Source: an uncultured Selenomonadaceae bacterium (GTDB lineage Bacteria > Bacillota > Negativicutes > Selenomonadales > Selenomonadaceae). From it: a stretch of 64,000 nucleotides of DNA. This document shows positions 3,221 through 58,596 of the stretch, in pieces. A program made the position numbers and the translations under genes. The notes beneath the pieces are model-generated. The model saw only the letters and a list, made by a program, of their open reading frames with translations, was not told the DNA's origin and made no database searches. The stretch is taken from the NCBI GenBank assembly GCA_965363355.1, contig CBDTTM010000001.1:5495-69494 (forward strand). The letters are read 5' to 3'. Position 1 is the stretch's first letter. Every line of letters starts with the position of its first letter.

Positions 3221-3986
3221 TCTTGCTCACCTCTTTAGCCAAATCGCGATATACCTCTGCCCCTTTTGATCTAGGATCATAGGCAATGATTGGTTGTCCG
3301 TAAGAAGGTGCTTCACTTAAGCGAACGTTTCTTGGAATAACCGTTTCATATACCTTTTCGGCAAAATGTTTGTGAACTTCTTCCGCTACTTGCATAGATA
3401 ACTTGGTACGGGAATCAAACATCGTCAATAATACGCCCTCAAGAACCAAATCTGGATTAAGATTTTGTTGAACAAGCGATATTGTATTCATAAGTTGTGA
3501 AACGCCTTCCAGTGCATAAAATTCAGATTGGATTGGCATCAATACGGAATCAGCTGCGGTTAATGAATTTAAAGTAAGCAAGCCTAAAGATGGTGGACAA
3601 TCTATAATTACATAGTCGTAATTTTTTTTGACCTTATCGATTGCTCTTTTCAATTTATTTTCCCGTGAAATTGCGGCAACTAACTCAACTTCAGCCCCAG
3701 CAAGTTCAATTGTTGCTGGTAAAATTGACAAATTGGCAAAATCTGTTTCCTGAATAACCAATTCAATATCAGCTCCAGCAACCAAAACGTCATAAATAGA
3801 TTGCTCAATCTGTGATTTATCCAATCCATAGCCACTTGTCGCATTTCCCTGAGGATCGACATCGACAAGTAATACCTTTTTATTGAGTTCCGCTAAGCAA
3901 GCGCTTAAATTTACCGAGGTAGTCGTTTTTCCAACGCCGCCTTTTTGATTGGCAATCGCAATAATTTTTGCCAAATTGTTCACCAT
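3213..3986 (-). CDS. parA: chromosome partitioning ATPase ParA/Soj
   Basis: Deviant Walker A KGGVGKTT near the N-terminus, 257 aa, classic Soj length and neighbourhood. Confidence 0.9.
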   Translation of the reverse strand: MVNNLAKIIAIANQKGGVGKTTTSVNLSACLAELNKKVLLVDVDPQGNATSGYGLDKSQIEQSIYDVLVAGADIELVIQETDFANLSILPATIELAGAEVELVAAISRENKLKRAIDKVKKNYDYVIIDCPPSLGLLTLNSLTAADSVLMPIQSEFYALEGVSQLMNTISLVQQNLNPDLVLEGVLLTMFDSRTKLSMQVAEEVHKHFAEKVYETVIPRNVRLSEAPSYGQPIIAYDPRSKGAEVYRDLAKEVSKNG

Positions 3987-18977: not shown

Positions 18978-19299
18978 TGTGGATATTTTCGTCTTTTTTA
19001 TCTTTTCTCTATAAATATTGTTGATAACTTCCCTCTATTTTGGTAATATAACTTTAGCTACTTATCCACATTTCCACATAAGTCTATGGATTTATACCCA
19101 TTTTCTTAAGTTTATTAACAATATAGTCCACTTATACACATATTTATCCACAAAGATGTAAATTGCAAATATGCCACTGTATACAAAGCCTCGAGAATAT
19201 TTTAGTTTTTCGATTTTGTATTTTTTTTCGCCTTTTTACCTTTTCCACTGAATAAAGATATCCACAGTTGTGCATAAAATTGTGGATATCTTATCCAGG
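18978..19299. other. oriC: oriC upstream DnaA-box cluster (incA/B-like)
   Basis: Perfect TTATCCACA at 19062-19070 and 19144-19152. One-mismatch boxes at 18978, 19132, 19258 and 19281. A two-mismatch box at 19291. Confidence 0.8.
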
Positions 19300-20781: not shown

Positions 20782-20999
20782 TGTGTATAACTATGTATTT
20801 TTCCTGTAGATGAATTGTGGGTAAGATTTATCCCTAAAAATTATGTGGATATGTGGATAACTCGACTATTATTTATAAACATGTTATTCACCACGATAAT
20901 GTTGATAACTTACCGTTTAACAGTAGTTATCAACATTTCCACAGTCCCTACGACTATTACGACTATTTTTTTATATATATTTAAAACAGTAATACTAAA
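20782..20999. other. oriC: oriC downstream DnaA-box cluster plus AT-rich unwinding region (incC-like)
   Basis: Boxes at 20782, 20816 and 20844. Perfect tgtggataa at 20852-20860. Inverted TTATCAACA pair at 20900 and 20927. Tandem tacgactat x2 at 20949-20966, then an AT-rich stretch to 20999. Confidence 0.7.
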
Positions 21000-51519: not shown

Positions 51520-52116
51520 TCAGTCCCTCCTTTTGATACCGGATAGGAATATATCAAGTGTCTGCGTGAGATAGGTCGTAGCAGGCAGCGATTTTTCATC
51601 TTTGATTCGAGATCGAATGGGGCGGCTGAAAAAGAAAAAATTGACCATGCCGGCCCAAAGAATGACCGCAGCATCGACATCGAGATCTTGACGAAATAAG
51701 CCTTCTTCAATTCCACGGTGCAAGGCTTTGGCGATTATTTCAAAAACATATTTTAAGTGATTTTGGGCAAATGCTTCGAGAATTGCAGAAGGGGCTATGA
51801 ATTCGCGGTAACACAGCTTGATGAAATACGGGTTTTCCGTATGGATCTTAAGCATGGTCGCAGCATAGAGCTCGAGAATATCGATGGGACTGTTTTCTCC
51901 ATTTTGGGCTTTTTGGGTGAAGTCTACCAATATTTGAAGCTGTTTTTCGACAGCGGCTTGGTAAAGCCCTTGTTTGCTGCCAAAATGATAAGAAATCAAA
52001 GCGCTGTTGACGTTGGCTTTTGCGGCAAGTTGACGAATGGAAGTCTTATCAAAACCATCGTCGGCAAAAAGCTCGATGGCAGTCTGCAATAATTTTTCTT
52101 TGCTGTCGTTTTCCAT
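51520..52116 (-). CDS. TetR/AcrR-family transcriptional regulator
   Basis: N-terminal HTH LLQTAIELFADDGFDKTSIRQLAAKANVNSALISYHFGSK. Confidence 0.85.
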   Translation of the reverse strand: MENDSKEKLLQTAIELFADDGFDKTSIRQLAAKANVNSALISYHFGSKQGLYQAAVEKQLQILVDFTQKAQNGENSPIDILELYAATMLKIHTENPYFIKLCYREFIAPSAILEAFAQNHLKYVFEIIAKALHRGIEEGLFRQDLDVDAAVILWAGMVNFFFFSRPIRSRIKDEKSLPATTYLTQTLDIFLSGIKRRD

Positions 52117-52295
52117 AAATATCCCCTTTTAATCAAATGATTTAATCTTTTGATTAAATCATAAGGCCAAAGTAATTATTTTGCAAGAGAAATTCTTTGC
52201 GTTAGGCCAGATGGTGCCAATTTTTATAAAAAGAATTGTTATCAACAACCAAAAATTATATAATTAAGAAAATAGAACCAGCGGGGGTGAAGCCA

Positions 52296-53558
52296 ATGTT
52301 TGATATAATAAAAGATTATTTCAATAAAACACATGCAGCGAGTGCTAAAGCCCGCAATTTTTTTCGCTACATAGGACCGGGTATCTTAATTACAGTAGGG
52401 TTCATCGATCCAGGAAACTGGGCATCCAATATGGCGGCCGGGGCCCAGTACGGCTACTTGCTCTTGTGGATGGTCACGCTCTCGACAATCATGTTGATTG
52501 TTTTGCAGCATAATGCAGCTCATCTAGGAATCGTTACGGGCCTTTGTTTGTCAGAAGCTGCGGCGGCGTATGTTCAACCTATTATTGGTAAATTTATTCT
52601 GGTATCCGCTGTGGCGGCTTCCATTGCTACAGCTTTGGCGGAGATTCTCGGTGGCGCGATTGCCCTATCCATTTTGTTTGGCTTGCCAATCAAAATAGGA
52701 TCGGTCATCATGGCGATGGTTTGTGGCTTTTTGCTTTGGTCTAATTCCTATAAAAAGTTAGAGAAAATCATCATCGGTTTTGTTTCGGTTATTGGCTTGT
52801 CCTTTTTAGCAGAACTCTATTTCATTGATATCGATTGGGCACAGGCAGCTTCGGGCTGGGTCGTGCCGACGATGCCAGAGGGATCGCTTTTGATTGTGAT
52901 GAGCGTGCTCGGCGCCGTGGTCATGCCGCATAATTTGTTTTTGCATTCGGAGGTCATCCAGAGCAGGCAGTGGAACTTAGAGGATGAAATCATCATCAAA
53001 AAACAGCTCAAATATGAATTTTTGGATACCTTGTTTTCCATGGGATTGGGCTGGGCGATAAACAGTGCGATGATTCTCGTCGCCGTAGCGGTATTTTACA
53101 GTCACTCCATTGCTGTTGAGGATTTACAACAAGCCGTTGATATGTTGAGGCCTCTTTTGGGCGGCAGTGCAGCACTTATTTTTGCAATTGCGTTGCTCTT
53201 TTCGGGTATTGCATCGACGACAACTGCGGGGATGGCCGGTGGCAGTATTTATGCGGGCATCTTTGGTGAGGCGTATGACATAAAGGATTATCATTCCTGG
53301 CATGGCGTTGCTTTGACCTATGGCGTAGCCGTGGCTATTTTGTTTTTTGTCAGCGATCCGTTTCAGGGACTGATTTATTCGCAAATGGCGCTCAGCATCC
53401 AGCTTCCGTGGACCATTGGTTTGCAAATTTACTTGACTTCATCAAAACGTGTCATGGGCAAATACGCAAATAATTTGCGGCAGAAAATCAGCCTGGGTAT
53501 CATCGGGTTGATTGTTGCTGGTCTTAATATATGGTTATTGATTGAAATGCTTGATTGA
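52296..53558 (+). CDS. mntH: NRAMP-family divalent metal (Mn2+/Fe2+) transporter
   Basis: GPGILITVGFIDPGNW motif. Start trimmed to the ATG at 52296 behind gggggtga. 420 aa. Confidence 0.85.
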   Translation: MFDIIKDYFNKTHAASAKARNFFRYIGPGILITVGFIDPGNWASNMAAGAQYGYLLLWMVTLSTIMLIVLQHNAAHLGIVTGLCLSEAAAAYVQPIIGKFILVSAVAASIATALAEILGGAIALSILFGLPIKIGSVIMAMVCGFLLWSNSYKKLEKIIIGFVSVIGLSFLAELYFIDIDWAQAASGWVVPTMPEGSLLIVMSVLGAVVMPHNLFLHSEVIQSRQWNLEDEIIIKKQLKYEFLDTLFSMGLGWAINSAMILVAVAVFYSHSIAVEDLQQAVDMLRPLLGGSAALIFAIALLFSGIASTTTAGMAGGSIYAGIFGEAYDIKDYHSWHGVALTYGVAVAILFFVSDPFQGLIYSQMALSIQLPWTIGLQIYLTSSKRVMGKYANNLRQKISLGIIGLIVAGLNIWLLIEMLD

Positions 53559-53564
53559 GCACAT

Positions 53565-53610
53565 AAAAAAGGAAGCTTGTATTTCCCGGGAAATACAAGC
53601 TTCCTTTTTT
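53565..53610. terminator. 46-bp perfect palindrome (bidirectional terminator) whose centre is a perfect Noc-binding-site 16-mer
   Basis: Sequence aaaaaaggaagcttgTATTTCCCGGGAAATAcaagcttcctttttt. The 16-mer lies at 53580-53595. Confidence 0.7.
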
Positions 53611-53620
53611 ATGCCTAAAA

Positions 53621-54958
53621 TCATTCTAGGCGAAACGTATGTTTGAAATAACGGTAAAGCAAAACCGATGATAACAATATTGTGGCAGCTTCAGCCAATG
53701 GGACAGTAAGCCAGATCCCGCGGATGCCAAACAAGGCTGGCAGTAGAAAGATTCCTATGCCGATCCAAACAAAACCTTTGCTCAATGAAATCAAGGCTGC
53801 ATGCTGGGGATGTCCGACAGCCGTGAAAAAACCGGAGATAATGATGTTGAGTCCATTGACAAGGAAAGCAAATGCGTAGATTCTTGCGCCGAGGGCTGCA
53901 AATTCGAGTACTTTCGGATTGGCGTCTGCTAAGAATAAGGAGACGATTTCTTTGCTGCCGAAAAAAAGCAGGAAAAAAATCAAGACGCCGATGAAACAAG
54001 CCGAGATACTGGCGAGCTGCAGGGCTTTTTTGACACGTTTTTCTTTTTTATAGCCATAATTATAGCTGATGATTGCACCGGCACCGTCGGATAAACCAAT
54101 CAGCACGTTATTGCCGATAAAAGAAAGGTAGCTGATTACCGTAAAGGCTGCAACGCCAGATTCTCCTGCATAACGCATGAGCGTGATGTTGAATAGGAAT
54201 GTTGTCACCCCTGTACCGATTTCGGTGAGGCCTTCAGCCGAACCGCTGTAAAGTATATGGGAGGCAAGTTTTTTATCGAACGAGCCCTTGGCAATCTGTA
54301 AGCTGCAATGACGGCTGCAAAATGGAAGCAGTGCCATGATGAAGGCGACGGTGCAGCCGATGCCCATTGCCAGTGCCGCTCCTCTGATGCCAAGCTCCAA
54401 ATGAGCGATGAAGTACCAGGAAAAAAACATATGGCTGCTGACGGCAACGACTAAGGCAGCCATTGCGTAAAGCGGCATTGCAATGGTTTTTAAGGCATAG
54501 TCAAATACCAGCATGACGGTCAAAAATGGTAAAAAGATTCCAGTATAACGAATATAAGTTGCGGTCGGTTCAAGCAGTCGTTCATTTGCGCCGAGCAGAC
54601 GGGCAATCGATTCTGGATAAAAATATGCGGCGATGGCAAAAAACATCGATAAAAAGAATACGAGAATCAGAGCTGTGCGAAAGGCATCGCGAGCTTTGTC
54701 CCTCTCGCCGGCACCAAGCATTCGGCCAATCGAACTTTGCGCACCGATGCCGATGACTATGCTTAGAGCAATGGCGACACTGGCAAATGGCATTGCCAAA
54801 TTCACGCTGGCGAGTGCGTCCGTTCCGATGTAATTGCCGACAAAAAGGCCATCGATGATGGTGTTCAAGCCTAAAAAAAGCATAGCAGCAATTGCTGGAA
54901 GGCTGTAATGAACGAATAATTTTTGAATGCTATCCGTGCCTAAAATATTTTCTCTCAT
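53621..54958 (-). CDS. MATE-family efflux transporter
   Basis: 445 aa, 12 TM segments, typical MATE N-terminus (LFVHYSLPAIAAMLFLGLNTIIDGLFVGNYIG). Confidence 0.85.
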   Translation of the reverse strand: MRENILGTDSIQKLFVHYSLPAIAAMLFLGLNTIIDGLFVGNYIGTDALASVNLAMPFASVAIALSIVIGIGAQSSIGRMLGAGERDKARDAFRTALILVFFLSMFFAIAAYFYPESIARLLGANERLLEPTATYIRYTGIFLPFLTVMLVFDYALKTIAMPLYAMAALVVAVSSHMFFSWYFIAHLELGIRGAALAMGIGCTVAFIMALLPFCSRHCSLQIAKGSFDKKLASHILYSGSAEGLTEIGTGVTTFLFNITLMRYAGESGVAAFTVISYLSFIGNNVLIGLSDGAGAIISYNYGYKKEKRVKKALQLASISACFIGVLIFFLLFFGSKEIVSLFLADANPKVLEFAALGARIYAFAFLVNGLNIIISGFFTAVGHPQHAALISLSKGFVWIGIGIFLLPALFGIRGIWLTVPLAEAATILLSSVLLYRYFKHTFRLE

Positions 54959-55006
54959 ATAAAATCACTCCTATATAAGAGCATAAACCATGGAGCGGCT
55001 CTAAGG

Positions 55007-55816
55007 TCAAGCTTTGATGAGCTGAAACCATATTTCATAGTAATCGAGGCCATCTTTATGCGTACTGGCTAGATAGCGAGCTAGTAAATCACCTTTGGCT
55101 TTGTACCCTTTTTCTTCGATCCAAAGCATGGCAGTGGCGAGTATTTCGTTTTTGCTGGAGGCATAATCGGTAGATAATACGGTGTAAAAGTATTTTCCGC
55201 CAGGTGGAGCCTTGAATTCAGCTCGTTCGGCAGCGGAAAAACCTGCAAGTGTAGAATCTTCGAAGCTGAGGCCGACGAGGGCTTTGTCAAAATCCGCTGC
55301 GGTTAGCAAAGCTTCTTCGGGCAAAAGCATAGTATAGCGAAGAACATTCATCCAACTGGTGTCGGGAGTCTGGTATTGTTGGTTGATTTTGATCAGATCT
55401 TCAGCATCGAGGCTTAAAAATTTGCTTTTGAATAAGGGGGCAGGTACGATTGAAAATTTTCCGATGTGCTGTTGGCACTGTTCATAGCGCTCGGTTAGTT
55501 TTTCTAGTTGGCGGCTTTGTTCGCTGAGCAGTTTAATTTTTTGTTCAAGTGCCTGTTGATTTTCTTGCAGAAGGTTTTTCATCGCATCGATATCCATTTC
55601 GCACAAAGCCTGCCGTATATCCTTTACCGGTAGTTCCATGCTGCGAAAGGTCAAGATGTCCATGAGAATGACTAGGTCATCATAGCCATAATAACGATAG
55701 CTGTTATGTTCATGTCGATGAGAGGAAAGTAAGCCGGATTTCTCGTAATAGCGAAGGCTGTCGGTCGATATAGCAAAAAGTTTAGCAACTTCGCCGATGG
55801 TCCATTTGTTTTTCAT
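55007..55816 (-). CDS. MerR-family transcriptional regulator with C-terminal effector-binding domain (BmrR-like)
   Basis: N-terminal HTH WTIGEVAKLFAISTDSLRYYEKSGLL, coiled coil, then a ~150-aa C-domain. Confidence 0.85.
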   Translation of the reverse strand: MKNKWTIGEVAKLFAISTDSLRYYEKSGLLSSHRHEHNSYRYYGYDDLVILMDILTFRSMELPVKDIRQALCEMDIDAMKNLLQENQQALEQKIKLLSEQSRQLEKLTERYEQCQQHIGKFSIVPAPLFKSKFLSLDAEDLIKINQQYQTPDTSWMNVLRYTMLLPEEALLTAADFDKALVGLSFEDSTLAGFSAAERAEFKAPPGGKYFYTVLSTDYASSKNEILATAMLWIEEKGYKAKGDLLARYLASTHKDGLDYYEIWFQLIKA

Positions 55817-56259
55817 AGAAAAGTCCTTTTCTCTTGGCCGTAAAATACGGGCAATATTTATATATATTATTTGGTAGAGAATTCGTTGAGCGCGAGGGAT
55901 AGGAGCGGAACGGCATAAAACTAGATATTGTACAAATTAGCTTTGAGGGAGGAGTTTTCCTGCAAATCAGTAGGTTTATGTAGTTTATTGTGTTGGAAGA
56001 TTTATTTTTGATGCAGTAGTAAAAATGGACATTGTATATTGTTTTGATTTAACTAATTTTTACGCAATTCTTTTTATTGAAGTGAAATAAAAAAATGCAG
56101 TTTTAGGCTGGCGTTTTTTTTCACAATGTCGTATAATAACAAATAGAAATTATCACGATAACTTTTTGCTATAGGTTAAACAATTCAGATTATTAATTTG
56201 AAAGATGCCTATAGAGCATAATGGCTAAAACAATTTAAAAAGATTGCGAGGGAATTAAA

Positions 56260-57543
56260 TTGAATAAGAGCTTCTTTAAATCATTGCATTTTCAGGTTTT
56301 TGTATCGATCATTGTCGGTATAGCTGTAGGGTATTTTTATCCTTCCGTTGGTGCAAGCATGAAACCATTGGGAGATGCTTTCATCAAACTGATAAAAATG
56401 ATCATCGGACCGATTATCTTCTGTACGATTGTCGTCGGGATTGCCGGAATGGGCGATATGAAAAAAGTCGGACGCGTCGGCGGAAAAGCATTGCTTTATT
56501 TTGAAGCGGTAACGACGTTCTCGCTTTTCTTTGGCGTATTTTTAGTCAATTGGCTCAAACCTGGTGCCGGCATGAATGTCGATGCATCATCTTTGGATGC
56601 GGCCTCGGTGGCTGCGTATACGAGCGGGGCACAAAGCCATACAGCAGTGGACTTTTTTATGAATATCATTCCAAATACCGTGGTCGATGCTTTTGCTAAA
56701 GGCGAGATTTTGCAGATTCTGCTCTTTTCCGTTATGTTTGGCTGGGCGTTGTCTAAGTTCGGTGATAAAGGGCAGCGATTGCTTGGCCTGATCAGCGATG
56801 TTTCCCATATTTTCTTTGGTTTGGTAGACATTATCATGAAGCTTGCGCCAATCGGAACATTTGGTGCCATGGCCTTTACCATTGGGAAATATGGTATTGA
56901 ATCCTTAGGCCCATTGATGAAGCTTTTAGGAACCTTTTACTTTGCCTGTTTCTTGTTTATCATCTGTATTATTTGGCCGATTTCACGCTGGGCAGGCATT
57001 AGTTTCTTGAAATATCTCAAGTATTTCAAAGAAGAGCTTCTCGTTGTTTTCGGAACAGCTTCCTCGGAAAGCGTTTTGCCGCGAATGATGGAGAAGTTGG
57101 AAAAAGTAGGTTGTTCAAAATCAATTGTCGGACTTGTCATTCCGACAGGTTATTCGTTTAATCTTGATGGAACGTCGATTTATCTGACGGTTGCTGCTAT
57201 TTTCTTGGCGCAGGCGACGAATACAGATCTTACAGTTATGCAACAGGTTACGATCATTGCCGTGTTGCTTTTGACTTCAAAAGGAGCTTCGGGCGTTACG
57301 GGCAGCGGCTTCATTGTTTTGGCAGCGACCTTGTCGACGATTCCGACAATTCCGGTAGCAGCCTTAGCTTTGATTTTTGGTGTCGACCGTTTTATGACGC
57401 AGGGTCGTGCTTTGACAAACCTCATCGGGAATGGTATAGCGACGTTTGTTGTTGCTGAATGGGAAAATGAGCTTGATAAAGACAAGCTTAAAAAAGTGAT
57501 GTATGAAGAAGTTGAACCGGAATCGGTCAAAATATCTTCATGA
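56260..57543 (+). CDS. dicarboxylate/amino acid:cation symporter (DctA/GltP family)
   Basis: SDF-family motifs ([33 protein letters not shown]). TTG start. Confidence 0.85.
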
Positions 57544-57556
57544 GATAAGATTTTAA

Positions 57557-57597
57557 AAAGGACAGTTTTTGTTTTGGCAAAAGCTGTCCTTTTTTTG
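57557..57597 (+). terminator. intrinsic terminator after the symporter gene
   Basis: Hairpin aaaggacag...ctgtccttt followed by a T-run. Confidence 0.65.
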
Positions 57598-57673
57598 CTT
57601 TTTCTTTTAATGAAAAAGAGGTAGAAAGATTCATTGCACAAAATAGAATTTCAGGCTAAGCAGATGGAAAAAC

Positions 57674-57838
57674 TTATCCACAGGTTTATCCTCTATCCAT
57701 GGTGATTTTAGGTAAAAATGTATACTAAATATAGAAAAGTAGGTAAAAAAGATAGAATATCTAGAGTTATACACTTTTTTATCCACATTATCCACAGGCA
57801 GGTTAGTCACATGTATAAAAAAAGTCACTTTATGCACA
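57674..57838 (+). repeat. origin-distal DnaA-box cluster
   Basis: Perfect TTATCCACA at 57674-57682, 57779-57787 and 57788-57796 (the last two abut). TTATGCACA at 57830-57838. Weaker TTATACACT at 57767 and TTATCCTCT at 57686. All in the same orientation. Confidence 0.7.
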
Positions 57839-57860
57839 GGGGCTTTTAGAAGCCAATTGT

Positions 57861-57889
57861 TTGCATTTTTCAGTAAAGGACGCTACAAT
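57861..57889 (+). promoter_or_regulatory. sigma-70-type promoter TTGCAT-17-TACAAT upstream of the mgtC-like gene
   Basis: ttgcat at 57861-57866, tacaat at 57884-57889. Confidence 0.5.
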
Positions 57890-57912
57890 AAGATTACTTT
57901 TAATAAGGCGAG

Positions 57913-58596
57913 GTGAGCTTTTTGGTTGTTTCTGAATGGGAATTGCTGTTGCGATTGATCCTATCTTGTATTTTGGGTGGGATGATCGGCTATGAGCGGC
58001 AGTCGAGGCATAAATCGGCAGGTCTTCGGACCAATGTTTTGGTTTGTCTGGGCTCGTGCTTGATTATGGTCTTATCGCAGGCACTTTATCAGAATGTTGA
58101 AGGAAAGACCAATGCAGACCCGGCTCGTTTAGCGGCACAGGTGGTCAGCGGCATCGGTTTTCTAGGTGCCGGGGCAATCATGAAAGAGGGGCTTACGGTC
58201 ACAGGGCTTACGACAGCAGCCTGTCTATGGGTTGTTGCTGGTGTAGGATTGGCTGTAGGTGCAGGGTTTTATTCGGGGGCATTGTTTACAGCGGCATTGG
58301 TCTTCATCACGTTAGGCACGTTGTCCCGGCTTGATGATTGGGTTACGCATGAGAAGAACTTGTCGATTGAGATTCACACAATCGATGCACCGGGACAGCT
58401 TGTCCATATCAATCAATGTCTCGATGATCTCCAAATAAAGATCAAAGGTCTCAAAATCAAAAAATCAGAAGATGAAGCAGAAGAAGAGACGATGTGCATC
58501 GAACTGTTCGTCTTCAACAAAAAAGGAATCAAAAGCATCTTCATTATGGATGCACTTAAACAGATCGATGGTATTTTAAGTGTAAACATAGAATGA
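57913..58596 (+). CDS. MgtC/SapB-family membrane protein
   Basis: LRLILSCILGGMIGYERQSRHKSAGLRTN motif, with a C-terminal ACT-like soluble domain. Start is the GTG at 57913 or the TTG at 57922. Confidence 0.85.
   Translation: MSFLVVSEWELLLRLILSCILGGMIGYERQSRHKSAGLRTNVLVCLGSCLIMVLSQALYQNVEGKTNADPARLAAQVVSGIGFLGAGAIMKEGLTVTGLTTAACLWVVAGVGLAVGAGFYSGALFTAALVFITLGTLSRLDDWVTHEKNLSIEIHTIDAPGQLVHINQCLDDLQIKIKGLKIKKSEDEAEEETMCIELFVFNKKGIKSIFIMDALKQIDGILSVNIE

Follow-up and report, generated by a model that had tools for sequence, protein, structure and literature searches.

On balance, the segment at positions 57674-57838 of the window, the whole stretch of 64,000 nucleotides that was analysed, is best read as a DnaA-binding platform. 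Its sequence and that of its relatives favour an autonomous DnaA-box cluster (DBC) of the B. subtilis kind, which would buffer or restrain the initiation of replication and which probably also affects the adjacent mgtC gene. The original prediction had offered two readings, a DnaA-titrating cluster or direct control of mgtC; the comparative evidence favours a titrating cluster of the DBC type, and leaves the datA type unsupported. Most likely, judging from the way in which the cluster is distributed among related genomes, it buffers or senses DnaA rather than serving only mgtC.

The source genome (G000) is a Selenomonadaceae MAG of 2.8 Mb, in 339 contigs, with 42.8% G+C and 93% completeness. 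The spacer at 57596-57921 is intergenic, with the terminator of an SDF-family symporter gene on its left and an MgtC-family gene on its right (Table 1). Within 165 bp, the cluster contains three perfect boxes, one box that departs from the consensus at a single position, and two or three weaker boxes. The three perfect boxes, the last two of them abutting, and the one-mismatch box were found where they had been predicted, together with co-oriented weaker boxes, and every cluster box in the window lies on the + strand. The window holds six perfect boxes against 0.5 expected, a number that was reached in 0 of 100 shuffles, and the three perfect boxes outside the cluster flank dnaA. The whole genome has 49 perfect boxes. 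When 49 boxes were placed at random, three of them fell within 125 bp of one another anywhere in the genome in 1.2e-4 of the trials, while the local base composition gives an expectation of 0.004 boxes in the cluster spacer. The clustering of boxes in this segment is not due to chance.

Table 1. Coordinates of the DnaA-box cluster, its flanking genes and the compared oriC elements, in window positions
Feature	Position	Strand	Remarks
dnaA	19299-20771		Encodes DnaA
oriC box pair TTATCCACATTTCCACA	19062-19078		Two boxes overlapping by 1 nt
oriC box pair TTATACACA-3nt-TTATCCACA	19132-19152		
oriC box pair TTATCCACATATCCACA	20844-20860	-	Boxes overlapping by 1 nt
SDF-family symporter gene	56260-57543		Pfam SDF 1e-113
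Terminator hairpin of the SDF-family symporter gene	57555-57594		Left edge of the spacer; 18-pair stem, then T run
68-aa ORF across the cluster	57631-57837	-	Spurious
DnaA box A, TTATCCACA	57674-57682	+	Perfect; distal box; same relative position in 15 aligned loci
Weak box TTATCCTCT	57685-57693	+	Co-oriented
Non-box motif 1, ACTAAATATAG	57724-57734	+	Family consensus acaaaAt.t.g; alignments of 15 and 27 loci
Non-box motif 2, GAATATCTAGAG	57755-57766	+	Abuts box B; family consensus aAtATaT.GaG; same alignments
DnaA box B, TTATACACT	57767-57775	+	Weak; one mismatch to TTATNCACA
DnaA box C, TTATCCACA	57779-57787	+	Perfect; 3 nt after box B
DnaA box D, TTATCCACA	57788-57796	+	Perfect; abuts box C (0 nt spacer)
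Weak box TTAGTCACA	57803-57811	+	Two mismatches; counterpart in the S. ruminis group is TTAGCCACA
DnaA box E, TTATGCACA	57830-57838	+	One mismatch
Predicted mgtC promoter TTGCAT-17-TACAAT	57861-57889	+	Pattern match
MgtC-family gene	57922-58596	+	ACT-like C-terminus; Pfam MgtC 8e-41; ACT_4 3e-4, below cut-off

The genome encodes a DnaA with the box-binding domain IV (Bac_DnaA_C, 2.1e-33). A single switch in the sign of the GC skew occurs at about 20 kb, beside dnaA, and this places the cluster about 37 kb into the right replichore, bearing out the distance from oriC that had been proposed. In about 40 genomes that carry both on one contig, the distance from dnaA to the core of the cluster is 4.5-49 kb; it is 28.6 kb in P. 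arboris, 32.5 kb in S. ruminantium HD4, 17.5 kb in Selenomonas sp. AE3005 and 36 kb in S. ruminis. The exception is genome G006, with its cluster about 207 kb from dnaA. This proximity may reflect inherited gene order rather than selection, because in genome G014, which is DnaA-less, the distance between mgtC and dnaN is still about 25 kb.

Conservation of the boxes in relatives, a check that the original prediction had named, was examined by searching 201 genomes of the family with the core query GTTATNCACNNNNTTATCCACATTATCCACA (GTTATNCAC-N4-TTATCCACATTATCCACA), allowing up to 3 mismatches. The core was matched in 138 of the 201 genomes and in 32 of the 40 genera, mostly as one copy per genome, and the reversed core pattern, used as a control, in 0 of 201. 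The figure of 138 is an upper bound for this locus, as some matches are not orthologous: three adjoin trkA, and those of genus g43 and genome G002 lie within oriC itself. The family genomes are related, and hence are not independent samples. A distinct cluster with the same box-3nt-box-0nt-box core was seen next to trkA in genera g12 and g6 (L137, L138 and L150). When the search started from mgtC, a box cluster was located just upstream of the gene in 30 of 105 MgtC loci, all 30 of them in Selenomonadaceae; these span deep branches, the window's clade, to which Propionispira belongs, and the clade of S. ruminantium. The S. ruminantium cluster (L038, L044) is orthologous, with the same core, and is found at about 20-30 kb from the origin, with CYTH and mgtC as its neighbours. 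As compared with its five perfect boxes, the window has three, has lost a palindromic module and carries the SDF symporter gene in place of CYTH. The breadth of these matches indicates that the element is an ancient DnaA-site cluster of fixed architecture, retained by most members of the family.

The core has a constant order, in which box A is followed by 85 bp with two non-box motifs and then by box-3nt-box-0nt-box. Alignments of 15 and of 27 loci gave the pattern box A, about 40 nt, ACAAAATATRG, about 20-27 nt, gAATATMTRGRG, box B (TTATSCACn), 3 nt, box C, 0 nt, box D and a final G. In the 27-locus alignment, the boxes and the two non-box motifs are conserved and the spacers are variable, and both motifs hold their positions in many genera. 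Box B reads TTATCCACn or TTATGCACn in the relatives, and the abutting pair of boxes C and D is also kept in many genera. Motif 1 may be a UP-like promoter element or the site of an accessory factor, and motif 2 may be the -10 element of an upstream promoter; in seven genera a TTGACA stands between the two motifs, 16 nt upstream of the TAT of motif 2. The pair may represent either promoter elements or accessory-factor sites. If the motifs form a promoter, boxes B-D would sit just downstream of its transcription start. We treat this upstream promoter (P1), composed of the two motifs and the TTGACA of the seven genera, as hypothetical, because its spacing of 14-16 nt fits only approximately and the final position of the -10 is not conserved.

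Downstream of the core lies a proximal module that varies among the loci. In many genera it takes the form TTATCCACA-2nt-TGTGGATTn-3 to 5 nt-TGTGGATAA, and it contains a 16-bp palindrome, with GC as the 2-nt linker in the relatives. The module is carried by L038 (about 3857-3889), L033, L045, L061, L102, L107, L010, L008, L132 and L142, and a conserved TATATATTATAGNAGGAAA precedes it in the relatives. Only its first box remains in the window, as box E (TTATGCACA). The opposed orientation of the boxes in the relatives' module recalls the core of DARS.

The genes on both sides of the cluster change from genus to genus. We retrieved 20 core loci, picked mainly from genera without an adjacent mgtC. 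On the left, CYTH is the neighbour in twelve of the 20 and LCP (LytR-CpsA-Psr) in three; in S. ruminantium, the LCP gene adjoins CYTH. On the right, the neighbour is mgtC in two, cdd (cytidine deaminase; Pfam-checked in one) in three, RapZ in two and a YitT-family gene in one. In genome G055 (L142), the modules of the cluster are all intact and are followed by about 450 bp of ORF-less DNA and then by a convergent fruA. At this locus, an ORF-less stretch with long inverted repeats, from +180 to +600 relative to the core, occupies the place of mgtC. Four genomes (G003, G015, G021 and G022) have no MgtC match anywhere and have kept both CYTH and the cluster. Altogether, the cluster occurs without an adjacent mgtC in at least nine genera, and mgtC occurs without boxes in G024 and G005, both of which have DnaA, and in genus g15. 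Examined for co-inheritance, the boxes and mgtC were each found without the other.

The left neighbours comprise CYTH, LCP, TetR or, in the window, the SDF symporter. This comparison makes a CYTH-domain gene the ancestral left neighbour. The 93%-complete source assembly gave no CYTH match, and the symporter stands where that gene would be. In Propionispira, a divergent TetR gene lies to the left of the cluster, and its orthologue in the window is located about 5.5 kb further left (about 51523-52116). The additional stretch of about 5.5 kb between the TetR orthologue and the cluster (window positions about 52100-57600) takes in the SDF symporter gene and, on the minus strand at 55007-55816, a gene for a MerR-family regulator. 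Across the loci compared, the cluster is the constant part and both flanks vary, indicating that it is autonomous of its neighbours.

A rumen genus of the same family, g15, allowed the cluster to be compared with the presence of DnaA itself. This genus includes Quinella-labelled MAGs and a clade of 57 box-less MgtC entries (examples are genomes G014, G077, G101 and G119, and loci L005 and L117-L126). The DNA-binding domain of DnaA (PF08299) is missing from 21 of 23 g15 genomes, four of them 99-100% complete, and almost every genome of the other genera has it. Of 61 g15 genomes, 47 have no full-length DnaA, and dnaN is without a dnaA neighbour in all five genomes inspected. The core pattern was found in 0 of the 23 g15 genomes, and none of the five scanned for pairs of perfect boxes within 300 bp contained one. 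In most loci of the g15 clade, CYTH lies 23-119 bp from mgtC. About nine g15 genomes retain a DnaA, though a divergent one (45-50% identity), and may form a basal subclade or reflect contamination of the bins. An RPA-type plasmid initiator has been proposed for Fusobacteriaceae, and the corresponding Pfam family (RPA, PF10134) was not found in 101 family genomes, including four of g15. A literature search found no paper joining Quinella and DnaA.

Most g15 genomes appear from these searches to be without DnaA. The clusters are not found in the genus where most genomes lack DnaA, and this comparative evidence argues that DnaA is the reason for their existence. The g15 loss amounts in essence to a single phylogenetic event, so this evidence is illustrative rather than statistical.

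The gene on the right of the cluster in the window belongs to the MgtC family, as had been predicted. Its called start, a GTG at 57913, falls within the ribosome-binding site GAGGTGA (57910-57916). The true start is likely to be the TTG at 57922, 5 nt past this site, and relatives align from residue 4-5. The promoter scan itself called TTTGCA-18-TACAAT (9/12) at the place of the predicted mgtC promoter, and TTGCWT together with TACAAT recurs in the window's clade (L031, L033, L034 and L004). The original prediction had placed the end of the cluster about 25 bp upstream of the -35 element; this layout was seen, with a gap of 22 bp between the end of box E and the promoter-like -35 and with box E centred near -62 from the predicted start, the promoter being a pattern match.

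The 68-aa ORF that runs across the cluster had been suspected to be spurious, and the searches agreed. It matched no Pfam family, and its tblastn similarity to relatives is restricted to the stretch where the boxes are translated as VDNVDK; the cluster was rejected as a coding ORF on these grounds. When Rfam was searched at a permissive threshold, only sub-threshold matches were returned, on the terminator hairpin, and the cluster was likewise rejected as an RNA element, no Rfam family reaching the threshold.

From the sequence we infer DnaA occupancy of the cluster, titration and any effect on mgtC as follows. DnaA would bind the high-affinity boxes A, C and D, and would then spread by cooperative head-to-tail binding to the weaker boxes B and E and to the TTAGTCACA site. 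Lying 37 kb from oriC on the right replichore, the cluster would be duplicated soon after each initiation, and the DnaA bound to it would be unavailable to oriC. The element would in this way buffer or restrain initiation, as shown for the DBCs of B. subtilis. The same DnaA complex probably makes the transcription of mgtC depend on DnaA occupancy; given the gap of 22 bp between the end of box E and the -35, a modulation of mgtC by the complex is probable.

A different weighting of the same parts is that the cluster is mainly a transcriptional operator, through which DnaA activates or represses the right-hand gene (mgtC here) and ties its expression to replication status, titration being incidental. 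We regard this only as a tentative possibility. The placement of box E relative to the -35 fits such a role, the window's clade has kept the cluster with mgtC through at least three replacements of the upstream gene, and a co-oriented gene lies downstream of the cluster in most genera. The two motifs and the TTGACA of the seven genera could also make a promoter directed into boxes B-D, an arrangement of the repressing kind. In B. subtilis, moreover, five boxes lie upstream of the sda promoter, whose expression needs DnaA (PMC2533591). However, the cluster is intact in the four genomes that have no mgtC, and in G055 it is followed by ORF-less DNA and a convergent gene. The genes found downstream (mgtC, cdd, rapZ and yitT) are functionally unrelated, DnaA-bearing G024 and G005 have box-less mgtC orthologues, and the promoter calls are pattern matches only. 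Our first idea had been an operator specific to mgtC, in view of boxes that tracked mgtC across changes of the upstream gene, and it was downgraded when the pattern search and the 20 loci revealed the cluster without mgtC.

Like the sda promoter, the window has several boxes upstream of a promoter, here a predicted one. However, the sda boxes travel with sda, whereas the boxes of the cluster persist without the downstream gene. The predicted control of mgtC is possible in this genome, where 22 bp separate the boxes from the -35, but it is not the cluster's reason to exist, because at least nine genera keep the cluster without an adjacent mgtC. In B. subtilis, upstream boxes activate sda, and ywlC and yydA are repressed (PMC2533591), so that any effect on mgtC may go in either direction.

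It is very unlikely that the cluster is a machine altering the nucleotide state of DnaA, by datA-like inactivation or DARS-like reactivation, with an accessory protein at the two non-box motifs. No datA or DARS function is known in Firmicutes, which we count against this explanation. The architecture is fixed, and the constancy of the motif spacing across genera goes beyond the needs of a passive sink. The opposed-box module of the relatives, TTATCCACA-2nt-TGTGGATTn-TGTGGATAA, moreover recalls DARS boxes I and II (PMC6868365). In the window, however, the boxes of the cluster all point the same way, the opposed module has been lost and no IHF consensus site is present, and the motifs could simply be promoter elements.

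The cluster resembles E. coli datA as an origin-proximal group with about five high-affinity boxes, and would, like datA, restrain initiation. On the other hand, datA needs an IHF site and promotes the hydrolysis of DnaA-bound ATP, whereas the IHF consensus WATCAANNNNTTR is absent from both strands of 57596-57921; a datA-type site was rejected for this reason. With E. coli DARS1 and DARS2 the cluster shares a core of three closely spaced DnaA boxes. Unlike DARS, where boxes I and II are opposed, boxes B, C and D of the window run head to tail and all boxes of the cluster are on the + strand; an opposed module nearer the promoter is present in relatives only, not in the window. A more ambitious proposal, which we also consider unlikely, is that the element, rather than being a passive sink, is the first dedicated site for the control of DnaA activity in Firmicutes, where a factor at the two motifs and a head-to-tail DnaA trimer would cooperate in a fixed nucleoprotein complex and inactivate or recharge DnaA once per cycle. 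The opposed box pair of the relatives would then join the complex, in a role like that of E. coli datA or DARS.

The cluster had been described as equal to oriC in box density, and this was roughly right. It has more perfect boxes (three, versus two and one in the two oriC spacers) and fewer boxes with at most one mismatch (four in 165 bp, versus nine in 331 bp and six in 154 bp). Close box pairs of the cluster's kinds, with 3-nt spacing or 1-nt overlap, are present in the oriC of this genome (Table 1), and E. coli DnaA favours box pairs 2-3 bp apart (PMC11317965). This comparable density and the shared kinds of box pair are all that speaks for a second or relic replication origin, which we find scarcely credible. 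The element has no A/T-only run of at least 12 nt and no DnaA-trio array by its boxes, whereas oriC has a 23-bp A/T tract; the GC skew switches once, at dnaA; and the element lies beside ordinary genes in all relatives. A second origin was rejected for want of an unwinding element and of DnaA-trios. A functionless chance grouping of DnaA-box-like 9-mers, for which the AT-rich context of the spacer and nothing more can be cited, has a negligible probability, given the genome-wide P of about 1e-4, the low number of boxes expected from local composition and the conservation in 32 genera with a zero-match control, which refutes it.

The control of initiation in Firmicutes is only partly understood. 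We know of no Hda, SeqA or datA system described in this group, and the DBCs of B. subtilis are the main known cis-acting brakes on initiation. These are located at yydA-yycS, ywlC-ywlB, yqeG-sda, gcp-ydiF, ywcI-vpr and thdF-jag (Ishikawa 2007 PMC2533591; Okumura 2012 PMC3245932). Deletion of the six DBCs leads to early initiation, and a single DBC restores control best when it is near oriC (PMC3245932). The DBC downstream of gcp is conserved without a clear target gene (PMC2533591), and the cluster is likewise conserved independently of any one target.

The cluster shares with the B. subtilis DBCs the grouping of consensus TTATCCACA-type boxes in intergenic DNA outside oriC. Both are mostly origin-proximal, conserved in relatives and adjacent to promoters, a predicted one in the case of our cluster. 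Dense consensus boxes in non-coding DNA, a host with DnaA, a location near oriC and conservation in relatives were all found here. The cluster differs from the B. subtilis DBCs in belonging to a Negativicutes lineage with other neighbour genes, and is not orthologous to any of them. It also differs in having a fixed core, box-3nt-box-0nt-box, together with two conserved non-box motifs.

Further clusters were noticed in the same genome. One on contig C5 (G000:C5:10402-10580) has six perfect boxes and is flanked by the genes for an ArsR-like repressor and a BglG/PRD-type regulator; in a complete relative, the corresponding cluster lies across the origin, at 73 kb from dnaA. Another (G000:C45:8033-8170) has four perfect boxes, with a histidine-kinase gene on one side and a decarboxylase gene on the other, the genes at both sites being named from translations. 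Pairs of perfect boxes are also present on C10, C11, C13 and C68. In the complete genome of a close relative, whose DnaA is 90% identical, the same set of clusters extends from 22 kb to about 510 kb from dnaA. These other clusters and their spread in the complete relative imply a DBC repertoire like that of B. subtilis.

Several points weigh against the reading of the cluster as an autonomous DBC. With its three to six good boxes, the cluster would be a small sink, and a larger cluster, that of contig C5 with six perfect boxes, is present in the same genome. Simple titration does not account for the two conserved non-box motifs. In most genera the cluster has a co-oriented gene downstream, and a portable, DnaA-controlled promoter cassette is possible. 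Finally, G024 and G005 have DnaA and yet no cluster next to mgtC.

By its sequence and distribution, the element belongs to the known DBC kind. What is new is its independence from both neighbours, its fixed architecture throughout the family and its absence from the sampled genomes of the one genus that is mostly without DnaA. A literature search found no paper joining Selenomonas with "DnaA box", and among the papers naming both DnaA and MgtC, no link between the two was apparent from titles and abstracts. In Salmonella, MgtC lowers ATP via inhibition of the F1Fo ATP synthase.

Among the diderm Firmicutes (Negativicutes), the cluster provides an independent example of a DBC, and the comparative support for it is unusually clear. 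It offers a well-defined target of 170 bp for binding and deletion work in rumen Selenomonas that can be cultured. In addition, it suggests that DnaA occupancy may be linked to an MgtC-family gene, a link that can be put to the test.
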